Part shown: positions 8,670 through 42,195 of the stretch, piece after piece
Layout: each line of letters begins with the position of its first letter
How positions within the stretch are numbered: the stretch's first letter is position 1
Assembly (NCBI GenBank): GCA_965227875.1
Contig: OZ245783.1
Span: 4,769,929 to 4,833,928, forward strand
Reading direction: 5' to 3'
DNA length: 64,000 nt
From: Hyphomicrobiales bacterium
Lineage (GTDB): Bacteria > Pseudomonadota > Alphaproteobacteria > Rhizobiales > JAJFHC01
The notes under the pieces: model-generated
Databases searched by the model: none
What the model was told of the DNA's origin: nothing
What the model saw: only the letters and a program-made list of their open reading frames with translations
Position numbers and translations under genes: made by a program

Positions 8670-8760
8670 GGAGAGGTGGCCGAGTGGTCGAAGGCGCTCC
8701 CCTGCTAAGGGAGTAGGCGTCAAAAGCGTCTCGAGGGTTCGAATCCCTTCCTCTCCGCCA
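8670..8760 (+). tRNA. tRNA-Ser (anticodon GCU), CCA encoded
   Basis: GGAGAGG acceptor stem pairs with CCTCTCC. Anticodon stem-loop is CTCCC-CTGCTAA-GGGAG. Long variable arm (TAGGCGTCAAAAGCGTCTC), T-loop TTCGAAT, terminal GCCA. Confidence 0.92.
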
Positions 8761-8763
8761 TTT
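8744..8763 (+). repeat. attL-like direct repeat TCCCTTCCTCTCCGCCATTT
   Basis: Covers the last 17 nt of the tRNA plus 3 nt. Identical to 14425-14444. Confidence 0.85.
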
Positions 8764-8911
8764 CCCCGAAGACGTATTAGTATGAGTGATTTCAGGGTGT
8801 TAAGGATTGTGCCCTGAATGTCGGTGCCCCAAGTTGGTGCCCCAAGATTGCCACTCCCGGTCTGAAAGCCCGAGCCAACGCAGATCGGAAGTTGCCTGAA
8901 AGGCAGACGCA

Positions 8912-9757
8912 ATGGCCGCTGATGATGCAGAACTGGCAAGGCGCAAGAGTTTAACCTTCAAGGAGGCCGAGGGCTTGGTGCCTCTCCCCTCGCAACTAAA
9001 CCTGCGAAAAACGAGCCCAACCCTCAGAGCGCGGCTGTACGGCGTTGTCCATGATCGCCTGTTGAAAGATCGGGACAACTACTCGGCGAACTTGCGCGAA
9101 AAAAGCCTCGCCGTTATGCGCCACTACTGCATCAACAAGCTCGGCATGATGGCGGACGAACTCCCCCGTCATCGAAGCAAATGGCTGGAGTACGCGAAAG
9201 CGAACTATCAGGCAGATGACTACGGGAAGGTGTTTGACTTCACTCAGATCTTCTTGAGGTTAATGCAGGAAGAAGACCTGTCGCGGCAGGTATCCCATAT
9301 ATTGCAGGATGAGCGAGCAGCGTACCGACTGGTCGATGGCGACACCATAATGCCGATGTCCTCGGAGGAAGAGGGAGCGGCTTTGAATTCTGCATTAGGC
9401 GCCCTTGAGGCGGGCGAATTGGTGGGGCCGCGCAAGCACCTCGTTACCGCTGGGGCAAGATTGACTGAGGGAGACTATGCGGACAGCGTTCGGGAAAGTC
9501 TCCATGCCGTCGAGTCGCTGGCACGGTCCAAGACTGGCAAGAGCAAGTTTTCGGACGCACTGCGAGAACTGCACAACCAAATCCCCATGCACGGCTCGTT
9601 CAGAGCAGCCCTAGAGAAGCTCTATGGTTATGCAAGCGATGAGCCCGGGGTAAGGCACTCGAACTCGGAACAAGGAGAAGCCAAGGTAACAGAACGTGAT
9701 GCTCTGTTCGTCCTTGGGGTCTGCGCCTCCTTCATAACGTACCTACTTTCAGCCTAA
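8912..9757 (+). CDS. AbiJ-like protein (AbiJ-NTD4-type N-terminus, HEPN-type C-terminus)
   Basis: N-terminal 'LTFKEAEGLVPLPSQLNLRKTSPTLRARLYGVV' fits the remembered AbiJ_NTD4 pattern (F-x-x-R/A-x-G...Q...LRN-x-LW). C-terminal 'GDYADSVRESLHAVESLAR...LYGYASDEPGVRHS...ERDALFVLGVCASFITYL' fits the AbiJ HEPN-like tail. Confidence 0.55.
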   Translation: MAADDAELARRKSLTFKEAEGLVPLPSQLNLRKTSPTLRARLYGVVHDRLLKDRDNYSANLREKSLAVMRHYCINKLGMMADELPRHRSKWLEYAKANYQADDYGKVFDFTQIFLRLMQEEDLSRQVSHILQDERAAYRLVDGDTIMPMSSEEEGAALNSALGALEAGELVGPRKHLVTAGARLTEGDYADSVRESLHAVESLARSKTGKSKFSDALRELHNQIPMHGSFRAALEKLYGYASDEPGVRHSNSEQGEAKVTERDALFVLGVCASFITYLLSA

Positions 9758-9793
9758 TGGCGTGCTGCCAGAATGGCAGAAAGGCAGATAGAA

Positions 9794-9880
9794 GGTCGCT
9801 GCGCTCGACTGTGTCTAGCTGGTCGGGCTGGTCACCCTCCATTGGCTCGTATGGTTCGCCGTGACTTATAGTGGGTCGCC
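9794..9880 (+). repeat. Repeat module A, copy 1
   Basis: About 80% identical, in the same orientation, to 11027-11113. Shared core is GGTCGGGCTG.TC.CCCTCCATTGGCTCG. Confidence 0.8.
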
Positions 9881-10050
9881 GAGAGGCGCTGTCCGTCGGA
9901 GCGGGCGGGTTATGCTGCCCATCATCACCCCGCCACTGTGCTGGTTTCCCTGAGGCGTCTGGAGGCCATCTGTGTGACGATACTCGGGGCCGTTTTCCGG
10001 TGGCCCGCATAGCGGGTCACAATCGGGCGGACCTGTGTGGCTGCCACCGG
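9881..10050 (+). repeat. Repeat module B, copy 1
   Basis: About 70% identical, in the same orientation, to 10846-11010. Shared blocks are GCCCATCATCACCCCGCC and ATACTCGGGGCCGT..TCCGGTGG.CCGCAT. It ends 4 nt before the PLD-like gene stop. Confidence 0.75.
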
Positions 10051-10054
10051 ACCG

Positions 10055-10774
10055 CTATTGCTTAAAGTCAACGGTGCTGGATGCCCAAAGCCCCTCATAG
10101 GTCTGCTGAACCGCTGCAAATGTATCAGTGATCTCTGTCAGCGTCGTCGGCGCTTTCTTCGCGCCATCCTTGAATGAGGCGCCGGACTGGAAGCAACGGG
10201 CTTTGTCGATGAGGACGAAGCGATCATGGAAGTTCGCGGCCGAACGCACCTCCAATGAATGGCCGTACTGCTGAGCATAGGCTGTCGCTGCCGGGACTAA
10301 TGTGGCCTTCCTTTCTCTACACAGAAGTCGGACTGGAACGCTCTTGTCGATGTGAGGAATGTAGCGCGTCACGAACTCCGCATCCAAATAGGGATCGACG
10401 AACAGGACATCGGCTCGGGCACTCTCAATGACATTCCTAACGCCATCGAAGTAGTCGAACACCATCCCCCCATCGACGGCCAAGCCAGTTGGTCCACCAA
10501 TGTTCCGTTGGAGTCTCCAACGAGCCGCTCGGAGAAGTCGGCGGATTTCTACCTCGCTCGTGTAGCTCGTCAACCGGTCATAAAGGCCCCCTATCGCGGG
10601 ACCGATTGGCTTCGACAGAGGGGTCGGCAAATCCATGAAAGTGGCTTGCACACGGCCCAGCCAATCCAAGGTTGCATCATCATCATTGTCCATCTGGCCC
10701 AAAGCCGGTGATGTACGGATGATGTCTTCAATCTCTACTAACAGCTGCCTTTCGTCCAAGAACGCCTCCTCCAT
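10055..10774 (-). CDS. PLD-like (HKD-variant 'HDR') domain protein
   Basis: C-terminal 'VLFVDPYLD...VRLLCRE...FHDRFVLIDKARCFQSGASFKDGAKK' is a single phospholipase-D/nuclease-like repeat in which HDR replaces HxK. The N-terminal ~110 aa are unknown. Confidence 0.6.
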   Translation of the reverse strand: MEEAFLDERQLLVEIEDIIRTSPALGQMDNDDDATLDWLGRVQATFMDLPTPLSKPIGPAIGGLYDRLTSYTSEVEIRRLLRAARWRLQRNIGGPTGLAVDGGMVFDYFDGVRNVIESARADVLFVDPYLDAEFVTRYIPHIDKSVPVRLLCRERKATLVPAATAYAQQYGHSLEVRSAANFHDRFVLIDKARCFQSGASFKDGAKKAPTTLTEITDTFAAVQQTYEGLWASSTVDFKQ

Positions 10775-10845
10775 CTTCCATACGCTTTGTACCGGTCCAA
10801 CAAAGCTTATAAAGCGACCGCAACGCCTTGGCCAAGTGTCCCGCT

Positions 10846-11010
10846 AAGAGGCGTCGTCCGACAGCGCGGAGTGGCTCGCCCATCATCACCCCGCCTCTGC
10901 GCGGACTTTGCAGAGTCGGCTGAACGCCATCGGTGCGGCAATACTCGGGGCCGTCGTCCGGTGGTCCGCATGGAGGGGCACATTGGGACTGGTCCGATGG
11001 TGCTGCCCGG
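10846..11010 (+). repeat. Repeat module B, copy 2
   Basis: See copy 1. It lies 71 nt upstream of the PLD-like gene start. Confidence 0.75.
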
Positions 11011-11026
11011 CTCGGGTAGCTAGGCC

Positions 11027-11113
11027 GGTCGCTCCGCTCCCGCTGCTCTGATCGGTCGGGCTGATCGCCCTCCATTGGCTCGCTTGGCTCGCCCTGAGTC
11101 ACAGTGAGTCGCT
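11027..11113 (+). repeat. Repeat module A, copy 2
   Basis: See copy 1. Here A follows B, the opposite order to copy 1. Confidence 0.8.
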
Positions 11114-11210
11114 GACGGCAATGTTACAGTTTCAGGTGGGGAGACAATGCGGGCAAGCCTAACGGGCCTGCACAGGCTTCTATGAGGCTCCTGGGGGCCT
11201 TTCCTTGGGG

Positions 11211-11259
11211 CGGGAGATTGGCCCTCGGCTCCTCTTCTCCCCATCCCCTCGGTGGTTAC
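11211..11259 (+). repeat. Direct repeat C, copy 1 (flanks serine recombinase)
   Basis: CGGGAGATTGGCCCTCGGCTCCTCTTCTCCCCATCCCCTCGGTGGTTAC. Matches 12351-12399 at 47 of 49 positions in the same orientation. Weaker similarity extends about 15 nt upstream. Confidence 0.85.
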
Positions 11260-11457
11260 CTAGGACGGCCACACTATGCCGACTTGGCGTTGCCGCCCCG
11301 TGCCCGGCCTGTGCAGATAGACCCTGTTTCCCCGACGCGATGGATCGGCCTTGCGGTCTAGGCTTGGTGGCACGGGCCTGCGGTCAGGGCTTGAAGTCCG
11401 TGCCGTACCTAACCGCCTTCGGCCACTGATTCTATCTCAAGAGCGAGGGGTGCAGCC

Positions 11458-12012
11458 CTAAGTCGCCAATGCGCGATAGACGCTGCGCTCGCTGATGCCA
11501 AGCTGAGTGGCGATGGCTGTGCGGGTCACGCCTTGGTCTGCCAGCGACTTGATGGCGTCCCGTTGGGCCATGGCCTTAGGCTTCCTCCCTGTGTACTTCC
11601 CTTGCGCCTTGGCCTTCTCAATCCCGGCCCTCTGCCTCTCCAGCATCATGGTCCGTTCAAACTCAGCGAAGGCCGCGAACATGGCAAGCTGTAGCTTCCC
11701 TGTGGCCGACTTGGTGTTGATCGTCTCGCCAGCGAAGTCGAGTATGCGTAGCCCAATCCCCCGCTTCTCTAGGTCGTCCACAAGGGCGAGGAGGCTGCGA
11801 AGGTCTCTGGCGAGCCTGTCCATCTTCGTCACCACAAGCGTATCGCCCTCGCGGAGATATCTCAGGGCTTCGTCAAGCTGGTCCCTCTGTGAGGCCCCTG
11901 AGGCGTGTTCCTCAAAGATGCGCTCGCAGCCTGCCGCCATGAGTGCTTCACGTTGGGCGTCCAGTCCCGCTACTTGGTCAACCGTCGAGGTCCGTGCGTA
12001 GCCTGTGAGCAT
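11458..12012 (-). CDS. Small serine recombinase (resolvase/invertase family)
   Basis: 'MLTGYARTSTVDQ' holds the catalytic Ser motif. Also 'LVVTKMDRLARDL' and a C-terminal HTH 'GVTRTAIATQLGISERSVYRAL'. ATG at 12012 has AAGGAAGG 8 nt upstream. The ORF is open to 12039. Confidence 0.9.
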   Translation of the reverse strand: MLTGYARTSTVDQVAGLDAQREALMAAGCERIFEEHASGASQRDQLDEALRYLREGDTLVVTKMDRLARDLRSLLALVDDLEKRGIGLRILDFAGETINTKSATGKLQLAMFAAFAEFERTMMLERQRAGIEKAKAQGKYTGRKPKAMAQRDAIKSLADQGVTRTAIATQLGISERSVYRALAT

Positions 12013-12350
12013 AAGGCAATCCTTCCTTTGGTCTGCCATTAGGTTCTAGACCTTGGTTTGATGACATGACAAAAGGTGGAAGTCAACCCTAATGGCAGAC
12101 TTAATGGCTGCGGACCCTGACAGCATCAAGACCCTGCCAGAACCTTGCCCTATTGGCAGTACGGGGCGGCTTCGAGCGATGACACTGGACGGCACCCCCC
12201 GGTGTTGGAAAACGTTGGGGCGCTGGACAGTGCGAATGGCGCTGCGAAAACGTGCTGGCGGGGCCTATGGGGAAACTCGCCCATTGCTACGTAAAAGACG
12301 ACCACTCGAATGAGCGACCCGTCAGCAGCTACTCGGGGTTTCCTTAGTGT

Positions 12351-12399
12351 CGGGAGATTGGCCCTCGGCTCCTCTTCTCCCCTTCCCCTCGGTGGCTAC
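12351..12399 (+). repeat. Direct repeat C, copy 2
   Basis: See copy 1. The spacing of 1140 bp encloses the recombinase gene. Confidence 0.85.
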
Positions 12400-12508
12400 T
12401 TCGGGCCGATCTGTACGGTGACTTCATGGTCACTTTGATCATTGCGACAAGGCGCGGCATGAAGACGACCGCAACGCTAGGAGGGAGAGGAGAGATGGGT
12501 CTTCCCCT

Positions 12509-12523
12509 CCCACACAGTGTGGG
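12509..12523. promoter_or_regulatory. 15-bp perfect palindrome CCCACACAGTGTGGG
   Basis: Read directly. The arms are too close for a hairpin loop, so it is more likely a dimeric protein-binding site. Confidence 0.35.
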
Positions 12524-12526
12524 GAC

Positions 12527-12612
12527 CTCTATGGCTACTTAGTGTCGCGACTCTATGTATGCTACCAATAGACCGCTCATAGCCCCTTGAAAACACTCAA
12601 AGTCTCAACTCA
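12527..12612 (+). repeat. Repeat D, copy 1
   Basis: About 75% identical to 12669-12752. Each copy contains the sub-motif CTC(T/C)ATG(G/TAT)GCTAC twice, and the block CCCTTGAAA.C.CTCAAAGT. Confidence 0.75.
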
Positions 12613-12668
12613 GTGTTTTCTGCGGCCCTTCCAGCGGTCTTCACCGTGTCGCAGCCTTGAGGGATGGT

Positions 12669-12752
12669 CTCCATGGCTACCTGGGGGACCCTCTATGTAT
12701 GCTACTTATTAACGCCGCGTAGGCCCTTGAAATCGCTCAAAGTGCTAACTCA
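12669..12752 (+). repeat. Repeat D, copy 2
   Basis: See copy 1. It ends on the stop codon of the small ORF at 12750. Confidence 0.75.
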
Positions 12753-12971
12753 AGCCAATCTAGCGGCGGCGTTCCGCTGGTCCTCAATGAGCGCTTCGAG
12801 CCACGGTTTTAAGTCGGCTCCGCGTCGCCAGTCCCTCAGGAAGTCCGCCGTCTCGTAGTCGGGCAGGAAGTCTGGCGCAAAGGCGACGGCTGCGGTCAGT
12901 TCCTTCAGGTCGGCGGGGCCGATCTTGCTCAGGTCAGTGGCCATAAGGTCGCGGTCCTGATCGGTCATCAT
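12750..12971 (-). CDS. Hypothetical 73-aa protein translationally coupled to the integrase
   Basis: Its ATG (12969-12971) overlaps the integrase TGA (12968-12970) as ATGA. Acidic, no family recognised. Confidence 0.45.
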   Translation of the reverse strand: MMTDQDRDLMATDLSKIGPADLKELTAAVAFAPDFLPDYETADFLRDWRRGADLKPWLEALIEDQRNAAARLA

Positions 12972-14389
12972 TGGTCGGTGTCCTTGTGTTGGGCGAGGGA
13001 TTCGGGTGGAAGCTGGACGGCTTCGACGCAAGGACGCATGGCTTCAGGTGGCGTCTTGCCGGGGTAGTGACTCATGGTGAGGTGGAGCATTTGCTTGATG
13101 CCGCCGTCACTATGGCCAACCACATCGGCAATAACCCAAGGTGTGTATCCCGCTTCGGGGTTCGCCATTTCGTCTCGGGCCTTGAGGATGAACCACCTGC
13201 GGAACGAATGGAAATCGACGTTGGACTTCGCCTTGTCGTTTGGCCTTTCATCGACTCCAATGTTGCATCGGTATCTGCTGAAGCGCTTCGAGGCAGGATC
13301 GGAACGGCTGTCCCTTGACAGCGGCACGGGAGGCAGTTCTTCAATAAGGTAGTCCGTGGGCCGCTTACCTTCGATGCGACGATCTACGATGGCCACAAGG
13401 GCGCTGTGTACGGGAATGCGCCGCTTGGCGTTCTCAGTCTTGCCAGCGGGGATGCTGAATATGCCACCCTCGCAATCGGACACCCTAAGTTGGCATATCT
13501 CCTCAATCCTCATGCCGCTCAGCGCTGCAATGCGCATCAGGTCAGCCAGAATGGGCGGTGCGGGGCCATAGATCAGGGTCGCTAGCTCAGCGTCCGTGTA
13601 AGGTCGTTTGCCACCGTCTGGCTCCCCTTCATGGGCGACACGTCGCGGCGGCGATGGGAGGGCCAATCCGCGCCACGGGCTTTCGTGTTCAATGTGCCCC
13701 TGCTCCTCCATCCACTTCCAGTACTCACGGAGGAAGCCCAGGTAGGTGCCCGCCCTGTTCCGCGATAGCTTTCCTGCAAGCTCCTCCCGAATAAACCTTT
13801 TGGCGGCACTGCGGTCCAAGGCCTCAACGGTCGTGTGTAGGCTGTTCCGCTCTAGCCATTTGGCCAGCATGTCTAGGACGCGGGAGAAGTCCTTTGCGCC
13901 CTTGATGGTGTAGCTCTTGTGCGCCTTGAAGGCGTCTGCAAGGTAGTCGATTGGTGTCGCCCGTCCGCTGATCACCTGCCAGATTTCCTTTGCCCTCTCC
14001 TCCCCGTAGTCCTCCTCCACTTCGCGGACCAGATCGGGGATGGCGGCATTGGACACTTGCATGGGCATTGAGTAGTTGAGCCGGATGCGCAGAGCCTCGG
14101 CGTTGATTGGATCGCCCGCGTCAAGGGACTTCTGTGCGGCGCTGAGGATGCCCTTCAGCGTCGCCACCACGGGCCACTTCCGCTCGTTCGCTGCCCGAAG
14201 GTCTGCCGTGCCAAGTGATTGCTTCAGGAAAGTCTTACCAATGATCGGGACAAGCCGCTTGGGCACCCTGACCCGCACTCTCCATTGCTGGCCGTGCCAC
14301 TCTAGGTATTGCCGATTGCTGGTCACGCTTGCCCCGTTTGTGCCCCACCACAGTGCCCCAGCTTGGAGCGTAAACTGCAATAAAGTCAA
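12968..14389 (-). CDS. Tyrosine recombinase / phage-type integrase (DUF6538-like N-terminus)
   Basis: N-terminal 'YLEWHGQQWRVRVRVPKRLVPIIGKTFLKQSLGTAD'. Catalytic region 'LSGMRIEEICQL', 'HSFRRWF', 'VGHSDGG...MSHY'. There is no ATG at the 5' end, so the start is TTG 14389 or GTG 14326 (uncertain). Confidence 0.88.
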   Translation of the reverse strand: MTLLQFTLQAGALWWGTNGASVTSNRQYLEWHGQQWRVRVRVPKRLVPIIGKTFLKQSLGTADLRAANERKWPVVATLKGILSAAQKSLDAGDPINAEALRIRLNYSMPMQVSNAAIPDLVREVEEDYGEERAKEIWQVISGRATPIDYLADAFKAHKSYTIKGAKDFSRVLDMLAKWLERNSLHTTVEALDRSAAKRFIREELAGKLSRNRAGTYLGFLREYWKWMEEQGHIEHESPWRGLALPSPPRRVAHEGEPDGGKRPYTDAELATLIYGPAPPILADLMRIAALSGMRIEEICQLRVSDCEGGIFSIPAGKTENAKRRIPVHSALVAIVDRRIEGKRPTDYLIEELPPVPLSRDSRSDPASKRFSRYRCNIGVDERPNDKAKSNVDFHSFRRWFILKARDEMANPEAGYTPWVIADVVGHSDGGIKQMLHLTMSHYPGKTPPEAMRPCVEAVQLPPESLAQHKDTDQ

Positions 14390-14424
14390 CAGGTTCTAAC
14401 AATGAAGATGCGGGGGAGAGTGCC

Positions 14425-14444
14425 TCCCTTCCTCTCCGCCATTT
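14425..14444 (+). repeat. attR-like direct repeat TCCCTTCCTCTCCGCCATTT
   Basis: Exact copy of 8744-8763. It lies 36 nt from the integrase 5' end. Confidence 0.85.
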
Positions 14445-38191: not shown

Positions 38192-40864
38192 CTAACGATA
38201 CCCGAGCGTCAGCCGATAGGGCGCGACGCTGCGCCCGCCCTTCCCGTCCGTCACGCGCAGGACATAGCGGCCGGGTTCGGCGATATCGACCGCGAGGGTC
38301 CCGTCCCCGCCGGGCGACTTGTCCGGAAGCCAGTTTCCGCCGCTCGCCCGATGCACACCCAGGTTGACGGCCATGCCCTGCGGCTGGCCCGCAATCGCGA
38401 TGGTCCAGCGTCCGGCTCTCGTCAGATTGGCGACGTAGAAGTCGGCATCCCCCTTGGGGAGGATCGTTCCGCTGATCTCGCCGTCAGGCGAAACGGGACT
38501 CGCGGACGCGGCCGAATTGTTCGGTTCGCGACGATCCGGGCTCGGCGTGTAGCGTGCGGCGAAACTGTAGGCGTCCGCGTTCCGGCCCGCCTTCGCGTCG
38601 GTCGCCCGAAGCACATACCGTCCGGGGCCCGGCAGATCGACGACCAGCCGCCCGTCTCCTTTCGGCGAACGGTCCGTGAACCAGTTGCCGCCCGATGCCG
38701 CATGAACGCCGTAGGCCATCTGAATGCCCGCCGGGGCTCTGATCGTTTCGATCGACCACTCGCCGTGGGTCGGCACGTCGATCGCGTAATAGTCCGCGTC
38801 GCCGGACGGCAGGATCGTCGCCGTCACCCTTGCATCCGGCCCGATCGACCGGGCCTGGGCGGCAGAACCATTGGGCTCGAAACCGTCGTCACTCGGCTTC
38901 CACGACAGGCCGACACGGTATTGTCCGGCGGACCGTCCGCCCTTGGTATCCGTGATGCGCAGGACGTATTCACCGGGCTCCGGAATGTCCACGACAAGTT
39001 TGCCGTCGTCCTTCGGAGACCGGTCCGACAGCCAATTGCCCCCCGCGGCGGGATGCACGCCGAAGGCCAGCGACATGCCGGCCGGCTGTGCCTGTCTCTC
39101 GATGGTCCACTCGCCGTGCCGGGGGAAGCGGACCTTGAAGAAGTCGGCGTCACCCGCCGGCAGGATGGCCCCGGTCAAGGTCTCGTCCGGCCCGACACTC
39201 GCGGCAGTGGCGGCCGACTGGTTCGGCTCGTGCATATCGCCGGTTTCGGCATAGGCCAGATCGAGCAGGTAGGGGTCGACGCTCCGCCCTCCGGCCCCGT
39301 CGATCACGCGAAGCACGTACCGGCCGGGTTCGGGCAGATCGACCACGAGCTTTCCATCCCCCTTCGGCGAGCGGTCCGCCAGCCAGTTCCCGCCACCGGA
39401 ATGGTGCACCCCGAACTGCAGCTTCATGCCGTCGGGACGGGCCCTGTCGGCGATCGTCCATTCGCCCTGGCGGGCAACGTCCACCTGATAGAAGTCCGCA
39501 TCCCCGCGAGGCAGGATCGTCCCAACGAGCGACCCGCTTGCCGGAGTCGCGGCGGCAGTCGCCGCAGCGGGGTTGGGTTCGCCGCGATCCGGACTTGGAC
39601 GGAAGACGGTTTCCAGCGAATAGGGCATCGCCGCCGCGGACTTGTCCGTTCGGGTCGCCCGCACGACAAAACGGCCCGGTGCCGGCAGATCGAACACCCA
39701 TTTGCCGTCGCTCCTGGCGGACTCGTCCTTGATCCAGTTCCCGCCCTGCGCCGGGTGCACCCCGACCTGCAGCGACGCACGACCGGGGTTCAGCACCTGC
39801 AGTTCACCATGCCTGCCGACTTCGATGCTGAAGAAATCGACGTCGCCTGTCTTGTCGAACACCGCATCGATCGTGCCCGATGGCGGCACCGGCGTTGCCA
39901 CGGCGGCGCTGTCGTTGGGTTCCTGTTCACCCGTCGAGCCGGCGGAGGGAAGCGCGCCCGTGGTACCTGCCGTGCTGCCCGACGGAAGCAGGGGCGTGGG
40001 GCTGCCCGGCAGTCCGGGTGCAAGAACGGCAGGCCCCGGAAGAACTGGCGCACCCTGGGATCCGGAACCGGCGGTACCCTGCCCGCTCGGAAGTTGACTG
40101 CCGCTGCCGTCGGCGGTTACGGCGGAACGCAGGGGGCATTCGAACTCGAAGCTCCAGCGCGTACCGGAGGTATTGCCGTCACAATTCGGAAACACGGTCA
40201 CCGAAGCGGTTCCGGCGCCCGCGGGGATGTCCAGTTCGAACGTTCCCGTGCCGCTCACACAGCCGGTGGACTTCGTGACCGTACCGACCGTGACGTCCAT
40301 CCGGTCCTTGATCCTGAGCATTCCCCATGAAAACCCGGCCTTGCCGACAAACCCGCCGAGGTCGACCGTCACACCGCCTCCCGCATCTCCTCCCTGCTCC
40401 ACCGCGGAATTGCATTCGGCGGTCCCGGCCTCGTCCTCTTCCGTCTTCACAAACCCGATTTCAAGGTCGAAACGACCGACCTTGATGCTTCTGGGTTCGG
40501 TAACGAACAGAGAGACAATCTCACTTTCGCCGTCGGGCGCCTCATCACGGATGGAGAATTCGAACACGATCTCTTGCGTCGCACCCGGTTCGAGCGAAAA
40601 CCGTCGCGGCTCCAGTGTCGTCATCTCGACATAGTGAAGCGGCAGTACGGGTACGATGTCATAATCCGGTATCGTCAGATTGGTGTCATTCCGTATTGTA
40701 ATCACAATTACGTTTTTACTGGACCCGATCTTGAACTGGTCGGAGTGCTGGCCACTCAGGCCCGGTTCGAAGGACTGCTGACTGAAAGCCGAAAAACAGA
40801 AAAAGAGCAGGAGCAGGATCGCGAACATGATCGTGCGAACCGTGAGGGCAGATGAAGTGTTCAT
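38192..40864 (-). CDS. Large exported protein: N-terminal CARDB/NEW3-like and Cys-rich domains, P/G/S linker, five PPC-type (pre-peptidase C-terminal-like) repeats
   Basis: ATG at 40864 overlaps the upstream stop (ATGA). Signal/TM 'TIMFAILLLLFFCFSAFSQQ'. Five repeats each carry 'EPNxSAAxA...GD(A/V)D(F/Y)(F/Y)...GxW...GGNW...PGRYVLR...Y'. Confidence 0.75.
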   Translation of the reverse strand: MNTSSALTVRTIMFAILLLLFFCFSAFSQQSFEPGLSGQHSDQFKIGSSKNVIVITIRNDTNLTIPDYDIVPVLPLHYVEMTTLEPRRFSLEPGATQEIVFEFSIRDEAPDGESEIVSLFVTEPRSIKVGRFDLEIGFVKTEEDEAGTAECNSAVEQGGDAGGGVTVDLGGFVGKAGFSWGMLRIKDRMDVTVGTVTKSTGCVSGTGTFELDIPAGAGTASVTVFPNCDGNTSGTRWSFEFECPLRSAVTADGSGSQLPSGQGTAGSGSQGAPVLPGPAVLAPGLPGSPTPLLPSGSTAGTTGALPSAGSTGEQEPNDSAAVATPVPPSGTIDAVFDKTGDVDFFSIEVGRHGELQVLNPGRASLQVGVHPAQGGNWIKDESARSDGKWVFDLPAPGRFVVRATRTDKSAAAMPYSLETVFRPSPDRGEPNPAAATAAATPASGSLVGTILPRGDADFYQVDVARQGEWTIADRARPDGMKLQFGVHHSGGGNWLADRSPKGDGKLVVDLPEPGRYVLRVIDGAGGRSVDPYLLDLAYAETGDMHEPNQSAATAASVGPDETLTGAILPAGDADFFKVRFPRHGEWTIERQAQPAGMSLAFGVHPAAGGNWLSDRSPKDDGKLVVDIPEPGEYVLRITDTKGGRSAGQYRVGLSWKPSDDGFEPNGSAAQARSIGPDARVTATILPSGDADYYAIDVPTHGEWSIETIRAPAGIQMAYGVHAASGGNWFTDRSPKGDGRLVVDLPGPGRYVLRATDAKAGRNADAYSFAARYTPSPDRREPNNSAASASPVSPDGEISGTILPKGDADFYVANLTRAGRWTIAIAGQPQGMAVNLGVHRASGGNWLPDKSPGGDGTLAVDIAEPGRYVLRVTDGKGGRSVAPYRLTLGYR
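38195..39922 (-). repeat. Five tandem ~342-351-bp coding repeats (111-117 aa each)
   Basis: Repeat starts are at protein residues 315, 429, 546, 663 and 780, counted from the translated ORF. The repeats have diverged and are not identical at DNA level. Confidence 0.85.
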
Positions 40865-42195
40865 TGTCCCTTGGCCTTCGTGCCGACGGCCGAACTCGTT
40901 TTCGGATCGCACAAGGATGCGCGGCGCCACTCGAAGAAGTTGTCGACGTAGGTCCCCAAGCCGGTTCCGTCGTTCGTCGGCTTGAGTTGGTCGAGCGCGA
41001 AGAATCCGTGCCGCATGAACGTGTTGTCGCGGCCCGTCGCTTTCGCGATGTACCAGACCACATGCTTCTGCAGCACACGTTTGAGAAACACCCTCCAGTT
41101 AAGCTGAACCCCTTTGCATGTTGAGACCTCCGCGAGCCTGTCGCGGTCGAGAATGAGTTCGGCAGGGTCGAGAACATCCCCCTCTCCCTTGTCCGCGGAG
41201 ATAACGATCTGGATGGTCTGGCCGGGTGTGAGATAAGTCGTGCCCCGCAGGGAGGAACTGAAACTGTGCCCGTTCATCGGCTCTACCAGAGGGTCGACAG
41301 GCGGTGCCAGCGCCCCTGACCAGCGCCAGTGCATGTGCACGCAATCAAAGGCATATTCGCGGCAGCCGGGGATGACCATCGTCCGCTGGCCATCATTGTC
41401 GAGCGCGGTATGGAGATTGTCGAAGTCGCCTGTCCGGCCGTCGATCTGGGCGAAAAACGATCTCTCTGATGCAAAGACCGGAGCGAGCCCCGCAGTCAGG
41501 AATGAGTTGACAGTATAGTCATAGTCGGAAGTTCCACCGATACCCACACTGCCATAATCGATCCGATAATAAGCGGTTACCGAGACATCATCGTCGGTGA
41601 CCGTCGGATCATCGGCTTCCCACCAGTAATGAACCAGTGGAATGAAACGATAACAGGTCCGAGCGAAAAACATGCTCGCAGCCATGCGCTGACCACCAGC
41701 GCAACGACTCTCCCCGTCACCGAACCGGTAAAGATAGGTGGCAATAAAAGTGCCACGTACGGAACCCTTCGTGAGCTTCTTTACAAAGCGCCACTCGATG
41801 GTCCGTCCGCCGTCTTTGATGACAGAGTCATGGTTTTGCGCCAGGTCGCTTGCGCAAAACTGGACGACCTCGGAGTCCCATTCGCCACCCGTGCGCTGGG
41901 CGACTACGAAATGCGGTACCCGCACCGCAGGCAGAAACAGCTTTCCTCCTGCCCGGATTTCGGTGAAGACGAGCCCCTTGGTGTTTTGCACTTCGTATCG
42001 TGCACTCCACGGCGCAGCGTTGACCGTACCGCTGCCCAAAACATACGGATCCTCGTCGGCACACGTCCTGGGCACATCGAACTTCGCCCTGATCGTACTG
42101 GCATCAGCCCCCGCGACATCGAGCATCGTCGCGACAATGACCAGGATGCCGCCAAAAGCTGACAAGAGCAAACAACACCTGACCAATGCATTCAT
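40861..42195 (-). CDS. Hypothetical 444-aa exported/membrane-anchored protein (unknown family)
   Basis: GGAGGA lies 7 nt upstream of the ATG at 42195. N-terminal hydrophobic segment 'MNALVRCCLLLSAFGGILVIVATML'. Motifs 'KGLVFTEI', 'GTSDYDYTV' and 'CVHMHWRW'. G+C is visibly lower than in the flanking hut genes. Confidence 0.65.
   Translation of the reverse strand: MNALVRCCLLLSAFGGILVIVATMLDVAGADASTIRAKFDVPRTCADEDPYVLGSGTVNAAPWSARYEVQNTKGLVFTEIRAGGKLFLPAVRVPHFVVAQRTGGEWDSEVVQFCASDLAQNHDSVIKDGGRTIEWRFVKKLTKGSVRGTFIATYLYRFGDGESRCAGGQRMAASMFFARTCYRFIPLVHYWWEADDPTVTDDDVSVTAYYRIDYGSVGIGGTSDYDYTVNSFLTAGLAPVFASERSFFAQIDGRTGDFDNLHTALDNDGQRTMVIPGCREYAFDCVHMHWRWSGALAPPVDPLVEPMNGHSFSSSLRGTTYLTPGQTIQIVISADKGEGDVLDPAELILDRDRLAEVSTCKGVQLNWRVFLKRVLQKHVVWYIAKATGRDNTFMRHGFFALDQLKPTNDGTGLGTYVDNFFEWRRASLCDPKTSSAVGTKAKGQ

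Follow-up and report, generated by a model that had tools for sequence, protein, structure and literature searches.

The window analysed here is a 64,000-nucleotide (nt) stretch of the genome of a Hyphomicrobiales bacterium (assembly GCA_965227875.1, contig OZ245783.1, positions 4,769,929 to 4,833,928 of the forward strand), and our subject is a set of diverged repeats, modules A and B, located on either side of a candidate defence gene. The modules lie in a 5.7-kb island (8764–14444) that is integrated at tRNA-Ser, its two ends being an exact 20-bp direct repeat of the tRNA-Ser 3′ end (Table 1). The island encodes an AbiJ-like and a PLD-like candidate defence protein, the genes of which are convergent, a small serine recombinase of the resolvase/invertase type and a tyrosine integrase. 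About 36% of the island is non-coding.

Modules A and B each occur twice in the 64-kb window, with both copies inside the island, and are arranged in the order A1–B1–PLD-like gene–B2–A2, the central open reading frame (ORF) being on the minus strand. All four copies have the same orientation and are thus direct repeats. When the segment 9700–11200 was compared with the whole window using blastn, the A pair was recovered as 9821–9882 versus 11054–11115 (62 nt, 82% identity, E = 1.4e-11) and the B pair as 9917–10045 versus 10878–11007 (130 nt, 76% identity, E = 2.8e-20). MAFFT alignments are longer, covering 89 nt at 74% for A (9794–9882 versus 11027–11115) and approximately 166 nt at approximately 70%, with one 4-nt indel, for B (approximately 9885–10050 versus 10849–11015). 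Copy number, orientation and order agree, to within a few bases, with what an initial annotation of this DNA had described. No third copy of A or B was found in the window using nhmmer profiles, and in a self-comparison of the whole window (E < 1e-6) the only non-genic repeats were A, B and a further module, C, all of them within the island.

The mismatches between the copies are spread as random placement would have them. In B, the two longest identical runs measure 18 and 14 nt, and in A 15 and 10 nt, lengths that fall within those given by such placement of the mismatches (P = 0.05–0.19 for B and 0.16–0.40 for A), and no conserved core stands out in either module. A short piece resembling the 3′ tail of module B (b0) is also present, not at 9761–9775, where it had been placed initially, but starting on the last base of the AbiJ-like stop codon (Table 1). 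It matches the tail of B2 (approximately 10997–11007) at 12 of 13 positions with one gap and lies at a similar distance from A; taken alone, it would be weak evidence for a further copy of B. The piece overlaps a different motif, CCTAATGGC, which is of the resolvase half-site type described below and is also found upstream of the resolvase gene. That part of a third A copy survives next to the PLD-like gene was also considered and rejected, local alignments there being no better than those of shuffled sequences.

Contiguous junctions of both kinds are observed: B-to-A (B2–A2, and the b0 tail followed by A1) and A-to-B (A1|B1). Because B2 adjoins A2 and the b0 tail stands before A1 at much the same distance, B followed by A appears to be the primary arrangement, and the difference between the two copy offsets (1233 − 961) gives a formal period of approximately 272 nt. 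Homology to copy 1 ends, on the right of A2 and on the left of B2, at one and the same point of copy 1, give or take approximately 13 nt; such a shared boundary point follows automatically from a fusion junction created by deletion. Similarity to copy 1 on the left of B2 may reach approximately 13 nt further, to approximately 10833, and could be what is left of an A tail; 7 of 12 extra positions match, which is not significant.

The reading we favour, and hold to be somewhat better than even, is that A and B are leftovers of head-to-tail, diverged copies of one intergenic unit that were trimmed by deletion. A and B would be the two halves of a non-coding unit of approximately 270 bp, in the order B then A, with B2–A2, upstream of the PLD-like gene, as the intact copy and b0–A1–B1 as pieces of further copies. 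The copies would have entered the tRNA-Ser islet head to tail, either because related islands that had already diverged accreted in tandem at one att site or through local tandem duplication. Deletions would then have removed redundant genes and fused the remnants during cargo turnover, leaving A1|B1 and the boundary between B1 and the PLD-like gene as deletion junctions. The C pair and a tandem pair, D, would be products of the same kind of process, and at present no constraint on their sequence would be detectable in the modules, nor would they serve a function themselves; every functional reading that was put to a test failed. An ancestral B–A tandem series with genes sitting between its fragments had been proposed initially, and the contiguous B–A and A–B junctions and the period of approximately 272 nt support this.

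Related islands lend weight to accretion and deletion: all copies here are direct and lie inside an integrase-bounded island, and some related islands form tandem arrays at the same site. When 46 related loci, each 6 kb or longer, were compared with themselves, 23 internal repeat pairs were obtained, all of them direct; 22 of the 23 lie to the island side of the integrase gene. In two loci (L165 and L160), parts of the integrase gene itself are duplicated in direct orientation. In three of the four long Mesorhizobium contigs listed (L202–L204), the same tRNA-Ser att site, right after the PLD gene, holds a second island, which has a P4-type integrase and AlpA; divergence of these contigs begins 14 nt into the tRNA 3′ end. 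Relatives thus show directly that islands accrete and then lose redundant parts. The 12–30% divergence between copies, if free of constraint, would be reached more easily by the joining of diverged lineages than by drift in place within a 5.7-kb element that is still mobile.

The Mesorhizobium island, which carries the closest PLD cluster (L201–L204, 1–10900), shares the backbone order and orientation, with an integrase, a DRT6-like reverse transcriptase, a resolvase, five unknown genes, PLD and tRNA-Ser; its PLD gene lies directly beside the tRNA-Ser gene. Amino acid identity to the proteins of the window is 52% for the integrase, 52% for the resolvase and 61% for PLD, and the tRNA-Ser site is common to both. 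No homologues of A–D are present in it, nor any internal repeats of at least 30 nt except one weak 31-nt pair. Because of this comparison with a syntenic island, the stretch between the resolvase and PLD-like genes can be regarded as a putative cargo slot, filled in the window by B2–A2–C1 and approximately 200 nt of other non-coding DNA, and the AbiJ-like gene together with b0–A1–B1 as probably added between the PLD 3′ end and the arm next to the tRNA.

Table 1 Features of the tRNA-Ser island (window coordinates).
Feature	Position	Strand	Evidence or remark
tRNA-Ser gene	8670–8760		Rfam match at gathering threshold
attL, 20-bp repeat at the tRNA-Ser 3′ end	8744–8763	+	Island left boundary
attR, second copy of the 20-bp repeat	14425–14444	+	Island right boundary
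AbiJ-like candidate defence gene	8912–9757	+	PF18863, E = 6e-9; PADLOC PDC-S32, E = 2e-52
b0, short piece like the 3′ tail of module B	9757–9769	+	First base is the last base of the AbiJ-like stop codon
A1, module A copy 1	9794–9882	+	Repeat search, blastn, alignment
B1, module B copy 1	9885–10050	+	Left neighbour A1; right neighbour the PLD-like stop codon
PLD-like candidate defence gene (PDC-S05-like)	10055–10774	−	PADLOC PDC-S05, C-terminal match, E = 5e-17
B2, module B copy 2	10849–11015	+	Repeat search, blastn, alignment
A2, module A copy 2	11027–11115	+	Contiguous with B2
C1, module C copy 1	11187–11259	+	Downstream of the resolvase gene
Small serine recombinase gene, resolvase/invertase type	11458–12039	−	193 amino acids; C-terminal HTH_7
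C2, module C copy 2	12328–12399	+	Upstream of the resolvase gene; 88% versus C1
D1	12551–12612	+	Tandem direct repeat with D2; period 140 nt, approximately 77%; just downstream of the integrase operon
D2	12691–12752	+	Tandem direct repeat with D1
Tyrosine integrase gene	12968–14389	−	DUF6538 N-terminal domain and Phage_integrase; island right end
Putative half-site matches at the resolvase promoter	12031, 12088, 12149
Putative half-site matches at both ends of the AbiJ-like gene	8896, 9753, 9769
Putative half-site match inside the AbiJ-like gene	9145

The remaining repeats of the island are, like A and B, direct. Module C flanks the resolvase gene and has a perfect core of 32 nt (P = 0.007), making it the only module with an identical run that stands out; D1 and D2 form a tandem pair near the integrase gene (Table 1). 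The motif TGCCWGAAWGGCAGA brackets the AbiJ-like gene, with three matches, all at the ends of the gene, a number reached in none of 100 shuffles. In one distant relative (L152), an unrelated module is present in four copies around and after the resolvase gene (5205, 6118, 6384 and 6978), and diverged tandem repeats shortly after the integrase gene are also seen in five related loci (L167, L168, L128, L150 and L154).

Searches for copies of the modules elsewhere returned chance matches or nothing. An 18-mer, GCCCATCATCACCCCGCC, matched at least 119 loci in reference genomes (123 with the viral matches), and in none of these loci did the similarity extend beyond 23–27 nt, as in chance matches. 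A stricter pattern, ATACTCGGGGCCGTNNTCCGGTGG, gave no match in metagenomes, and pattern searches of viral sequences gave four chance matches in one case and none in the other. Plasmids, searched by blastn with the whole island and then with each non-coding segment, yielded matches to resolvase coding sequence or nothing, and phages, searched by blastn with 9758–11457, held no copy of a module. Profiles of A–D found nothing in 75 metagenome loci (677 kb) encoding related integrases, and the contig bearing the PLD homologue of 59% identity showed coding similarity only, with no module copy. The initial annotation had raised the question of whether the modules border other cassettes; in the related loci searched, no such copies were found. 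For the three island proteins queried, the best identities were 55% (integrase), 51% (AbiJ) and 59–68% (PLD), and no exact database matches are on record for the PLD-like, AbiJ-like, integrase or flanking host proteins.

Several points weigh against an origin by accretion or duplication followed by deletion. The island contains no third att core; the 8-mers of the putative integrase arm sites described below are found at its two ends only; and no pseudogene remnant of an integrase, resolvase or PLD gene, nor any significant protein relic, was found in it. The three copies of the B tail and the tidy junctions require several events. Every cargo gene is bracketed by a direct repeat of its own, namely a 15-nt motif for AbiJ, B for PLD and C for the resolvase, and so regular a pattern, one repeat per cargo gene, could reflect something more specific than decay at random. 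Finally, no relative above 68% amino acid identity was found for any gene, so that the lack of conservation of the modules applies at large evolutionary distance only, and the comparison with reference genomes is based on an 18-mer that had chance matches only. The probability that is left after this reading and the alternatives named below goes to explanations outside those considered here.

First among the alternatives, and in our view unlikely, is recognition of the modules by the recombinases of the island. The B–A unit, or the point between B and A, would be recognized by the serine recombinase (or the integrase), and defence genes would be inserted, excised or swapped as cassettes. The resolvase gene lies only 350 nt away, each cargo gene is bracketed by a direct repeat, module C has its perfect core, and in the distant relative L152, too, a module lies to either side of the resolvase gene. 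The upstream regions of 13 orthologous resolvase genes are informative in this respect. In these regions, a promoter of the GGGTTGAC type is flanked by a lineage-specific short motif in inverted orientation, GTCTGCCATTAGG in the window and GTCTCACAT in Mesorhizobium; the GTCTGCCATTAGG copies form an exact inverted pair around the GGGTTGAC promoter-like element upstream of the resolvase gene (12031–12161). From the sequence arrangement, we infer that motifs of the GTCTGCCATTAGG type are putative binding half-sites of the resolvase itself. Allowing up to three mismatches, the half-site (CCTAATGGCAGAC) has 16 matches in the window, seven of which are in the island (Table 1) and none in A or B. 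Degenerate copies flank the AbiJ-like gene in direct orientation (8893–8908 and 9753–9789), so that the putative half-site is found at both ends of this gene and next to A1. Such a layout suggests autoregulation of the resolvase, perhaps with a tie to the capture or control of AbiJ. With half-sites beside the AbiJ-like gene and none in A or B, a link between AbiJ and the resolvase is possible, but A and B gain no support as resolvase sites.

Other properties of the modules also argue against their being recombination sites. Neither A nor B contains an internal dyad, a conserved core beyond chance or a hairpin, and their permuted order does not correspond to one site per cassette. Direct repeats flanking the resolvase gene are present in 2 of 13 related loci only (the window and L152); they are therefore sporadic and not a designed feature, and were rejected as a trait of the family. 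The syntenic Mesorhizobium island holds five extra cargo genes without such repeats. Identical runs of 18 nt in B and 15 nt in A are too short for efficient RecA-dependent exchange. The earlier suggestion that A and B are cassette-boundary elements or recombination sites is thus not upheld: they are absent from the Mesorhizobium island and from the 75 integrase loci, and they have no core, half-site, dyad or hairpin.

Two known systems invite comparison here. The res sites of Tn3-family and plasmid resolvases resemble A and B in being approximately 100–170 bp long, directly repeated and near a small serine recombinase gene. However, the putative half-site of the island clusters at the resolvase promoter and around the AbiJ-like gene, with no match in A or B, and the modules lack the dyad architecture of res subsites. 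In integron attC arrays, too, short non-coding elements border small, promoter-poor, defence-type genes near a site-specific recombinase, but the island has no IntI-type integrase, its only tyrosine recombinase being the DUF6538 and Phage_integrase protein at the tRNA-Ser att site. Moreover, unlike attC sites, A and B form no imperfect-palindrome hairpin, and they are direct repeats of 90–170 nt; their order is permuted, where an integron array would have a single attC at every gene's 3′ end, and the genes they flank are in opposed orientation.

A regulatory role, in which the modules would be duplicated promoter or operator DNA or an untranslated RNA, comes next in rank and also appears improbable. 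As an example, plus-sense RNA of A1–B1, in the AbiJ 3′ region, could pair with a read-through RNA complementary to B2–A2 and thereby couple the two defence genes. The positions of the modules are compatible with this: the 297 nt that separate the convergent AbiJ-like and PLD-like genes are taken up by A1–B1, and no intrinsic terminator is predicted there, B2–A2 lies directly upstream of the PLD-like gene, and a hairpin with a 6-bp stem (CTGCCAGAATGGCAG) follows the AbiJ stop codon. However, a promoter prediction scan of the island gave no sigma-70-like promoter, and of three terminator-like sites in the island none is in A or B. The folding energies of the B2–A2 unit and the b0–A1–B1 segment, on both strands, are those of dinucleotide shuffles (z = −0.29, +1.56, +0.67 and +0.65), whichever strand or copy is folded, and single modules folded with DNA parameters gave z of −0.72 to +1.69, that is, no attC-like hairpin of single-stranded DNA. 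In RNAalifold, with the two copies of each module and hence too few sequences for any statistical power, one or two double-sided changes were obtained per predicted structure. With gathering thresholds, Rfam detected the tRNA alone, and in E-value mode the modules had no match either; a repeat search found no inverted repeats within A or B or at the ends of the B2–A2 unit. The mismatches are spread at random, and the modules are not kept next to PLD homologues of 59–68% amino acid identity. A structured RNA, one of the possibilities raised initially, is thus not supported, with fold z values of −0.7 to +1.7 and no Rfam match.

Repeat RNA antitoxins of type III toxin–antitoxin and Abi systems (ToxIN-like) are similar in that direct repeats adjoin genes of the abortive-infection type. 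Those arrays, however, consist of near-identical tandem units of approximately 36 nt that lie upstream of the toxin gene and fold, whereas A and B are two long copies that are 70–80% identical and have no fold signal. Mosaic repeats such as BIME/REP and RIME also consist of short non-coding modules in variable order, but they are palindromic and genome-wide, whereas A and B are not palindromes and, across the 64 kb, are restricted to the 5.7-kb island. Terminal inverted repeats, as in MITEs, are likewise not seen at the ends of the B2–A2 unit.

The repeats may also be taken together, with the B–A unit, C, D and the motif flanking AbiJ as lineage-specific cassette junctions in a miniature tRNA-Ser defence island, a proposal that we regard as quite improbable. 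Single defence genes could then be deleted, captured or swapped, either by the small serine recombinase of the island or through recombination between related islands assisted by homology. If true, this would amount to an integron-like logic operating on a resolvase in place of IntI and attC.

Modules A and B are non-coding. The initial annotation had considered them to look so, and had noted a peptide, GEPxEPMEGDQPD, in the minus-strand ORFs that cross them; both of these ORFs do contain it. Substitutions between the copies show no codon phase (14/15/15 mismatches by codon position in B and 10/9/6 in A). Genuine genes of the island and host have a GC content of 0.38–0.51 at the second codon position (GC2) and 0.63–0.83 at the third (GC3), whereas every ORF across A, B or C has a GC2 of 0.56–0.71 and a GC3 of 0.55–0.68. 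Pfam found nothing in the two minus-strand ORFs. When the 124-amino-acid ORF across A2–B2 was searched against 1.84 billion representative proteins using HMMER, two matches were obtained, both of them very repetitive proteins with scores that are sums of weak repeats: the better one covers query residues 78–109, outside A and B, and the other, over residues 25–61, is weak and summed over 12 repeats. Searches of the non-coding DNA of the island by tblastn with 316 family proteins and with the cargo proteins of the Mesorhizobium island produced chance-level matches only.

That A and B are pieces of a decayed protein gene, possibly one with internal repeats, of which GEPxEPMEGDQPD would be a remnant, is consequently very improbable and the least likely of the explanations considered: minus-strand ORFs of 92 and 124 amino acids that have this peptide in common do span the modules, and one of the minus frames of B is free of stop codons in both copies, but open frames arise by chance at 63–65% GC, no frame has an excess of third-position substitutions, the combination of high GC2 and low GC3 is unlike that of real genes, and the protein searches gave no Pfam match, only repetitive artefacts and chance-level tblastn matches. 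The earlier idea of a duplicated or decayed gene is accordingly set aside, the mismatches being without codon phase and the ORFs without a real protein homologue.

Trimmed leftovers of a duplicated intergenic unit fit most closely with what is seen in tRNA-site islands that grow by accretion and then decay. As there, an integrase-bearing island lies at a tRNA 3′ end, the repeats are direct only, and diverged duplicates stand beside intact genes; the difference is that here internal att cores, internal arm sites and backbone pseudogenes are absent and that the pieces are purely intergenic and permuted. If this history is true, the locus would be a small, clean example of how a tRNA-linked defence islet is assembled and trimmed. 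An integrase–resolvase–PLD backbone in common with Mesorhizobium would have had its resolvase–PLD slot reduced to duplicated intergenic debris, with the AbiJ-like gene added on the tRNA-proximal side. Such a history helps in the annotation of similar islets and is not surprising; the modules would be of greater importance only if the resident resolvase proved to act on them, for which the tests made here gave no support.

Turning to the genes of the island, the AbiJ-like label of the initial annotation is confirmed by the Pfam and PADLOC matches (Table 1). The PLD-like label has indirect support only, from the C-terminal PDC-S05 match and from homologues, some of which have PF13091 or a PLD-like name in UniRef, but the protein itself has no Pfam match. 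Its true start is probably near 10759, given a 234-amino-acid database version. Similarly, the integrase probably starts near 14266, given a database version of 432 amino acids; NCBIfam gave it weak, sub-threshold, Xer-like matches only. Literature searches found no papers on DUF6538, and survey papers only for PDC-S05 and PDC-S32.

The motif GGTGCCCCA occurs twice, 13 nt apart, by each end of the island (8820–8845 and 14337–14362). It is kept at equivalent places in the Mesorhizobium island (L201, 85–110 and 10713–10738) and in a metagenome relative (L130, 192–214), and these are probably arm-type binding sites of the integrase. On the minus strand at 12750–12971, a 73-amino-acid ORF has gene-like values of GC1, GC2 and GC3 (0.66, 0.45 and 0.77; GC1, first codon position), and its ATG overlaps the stop codon of the integrase gene (ATGATGA). 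Neither Pfam nor PADLOC yielded a match; the ORF may encode an excisionase-like or accessory protein. At 12206–12253 on the minus strand, the translation TFSQRHSHCPAPQRFP resembles TFSQRHG.EP.P, a motif at the N-termini of several AbiJ-family proteins, including the hexapeptide TFSQRH. With so many queries, a match of this quality is expected by chance, but the stretch could descend from an AbiJ-type cargo gene formerly located upstream of the resolvase gene.

Outside the island, a 912-amino-acid ORF on the minus strand (38192–40930) contains diverged internal direct repeats at 38211–39523, with offsets of approximately 351 and 702–1053 nt and 66–75% identity, and probably encodes a repetitive protein.

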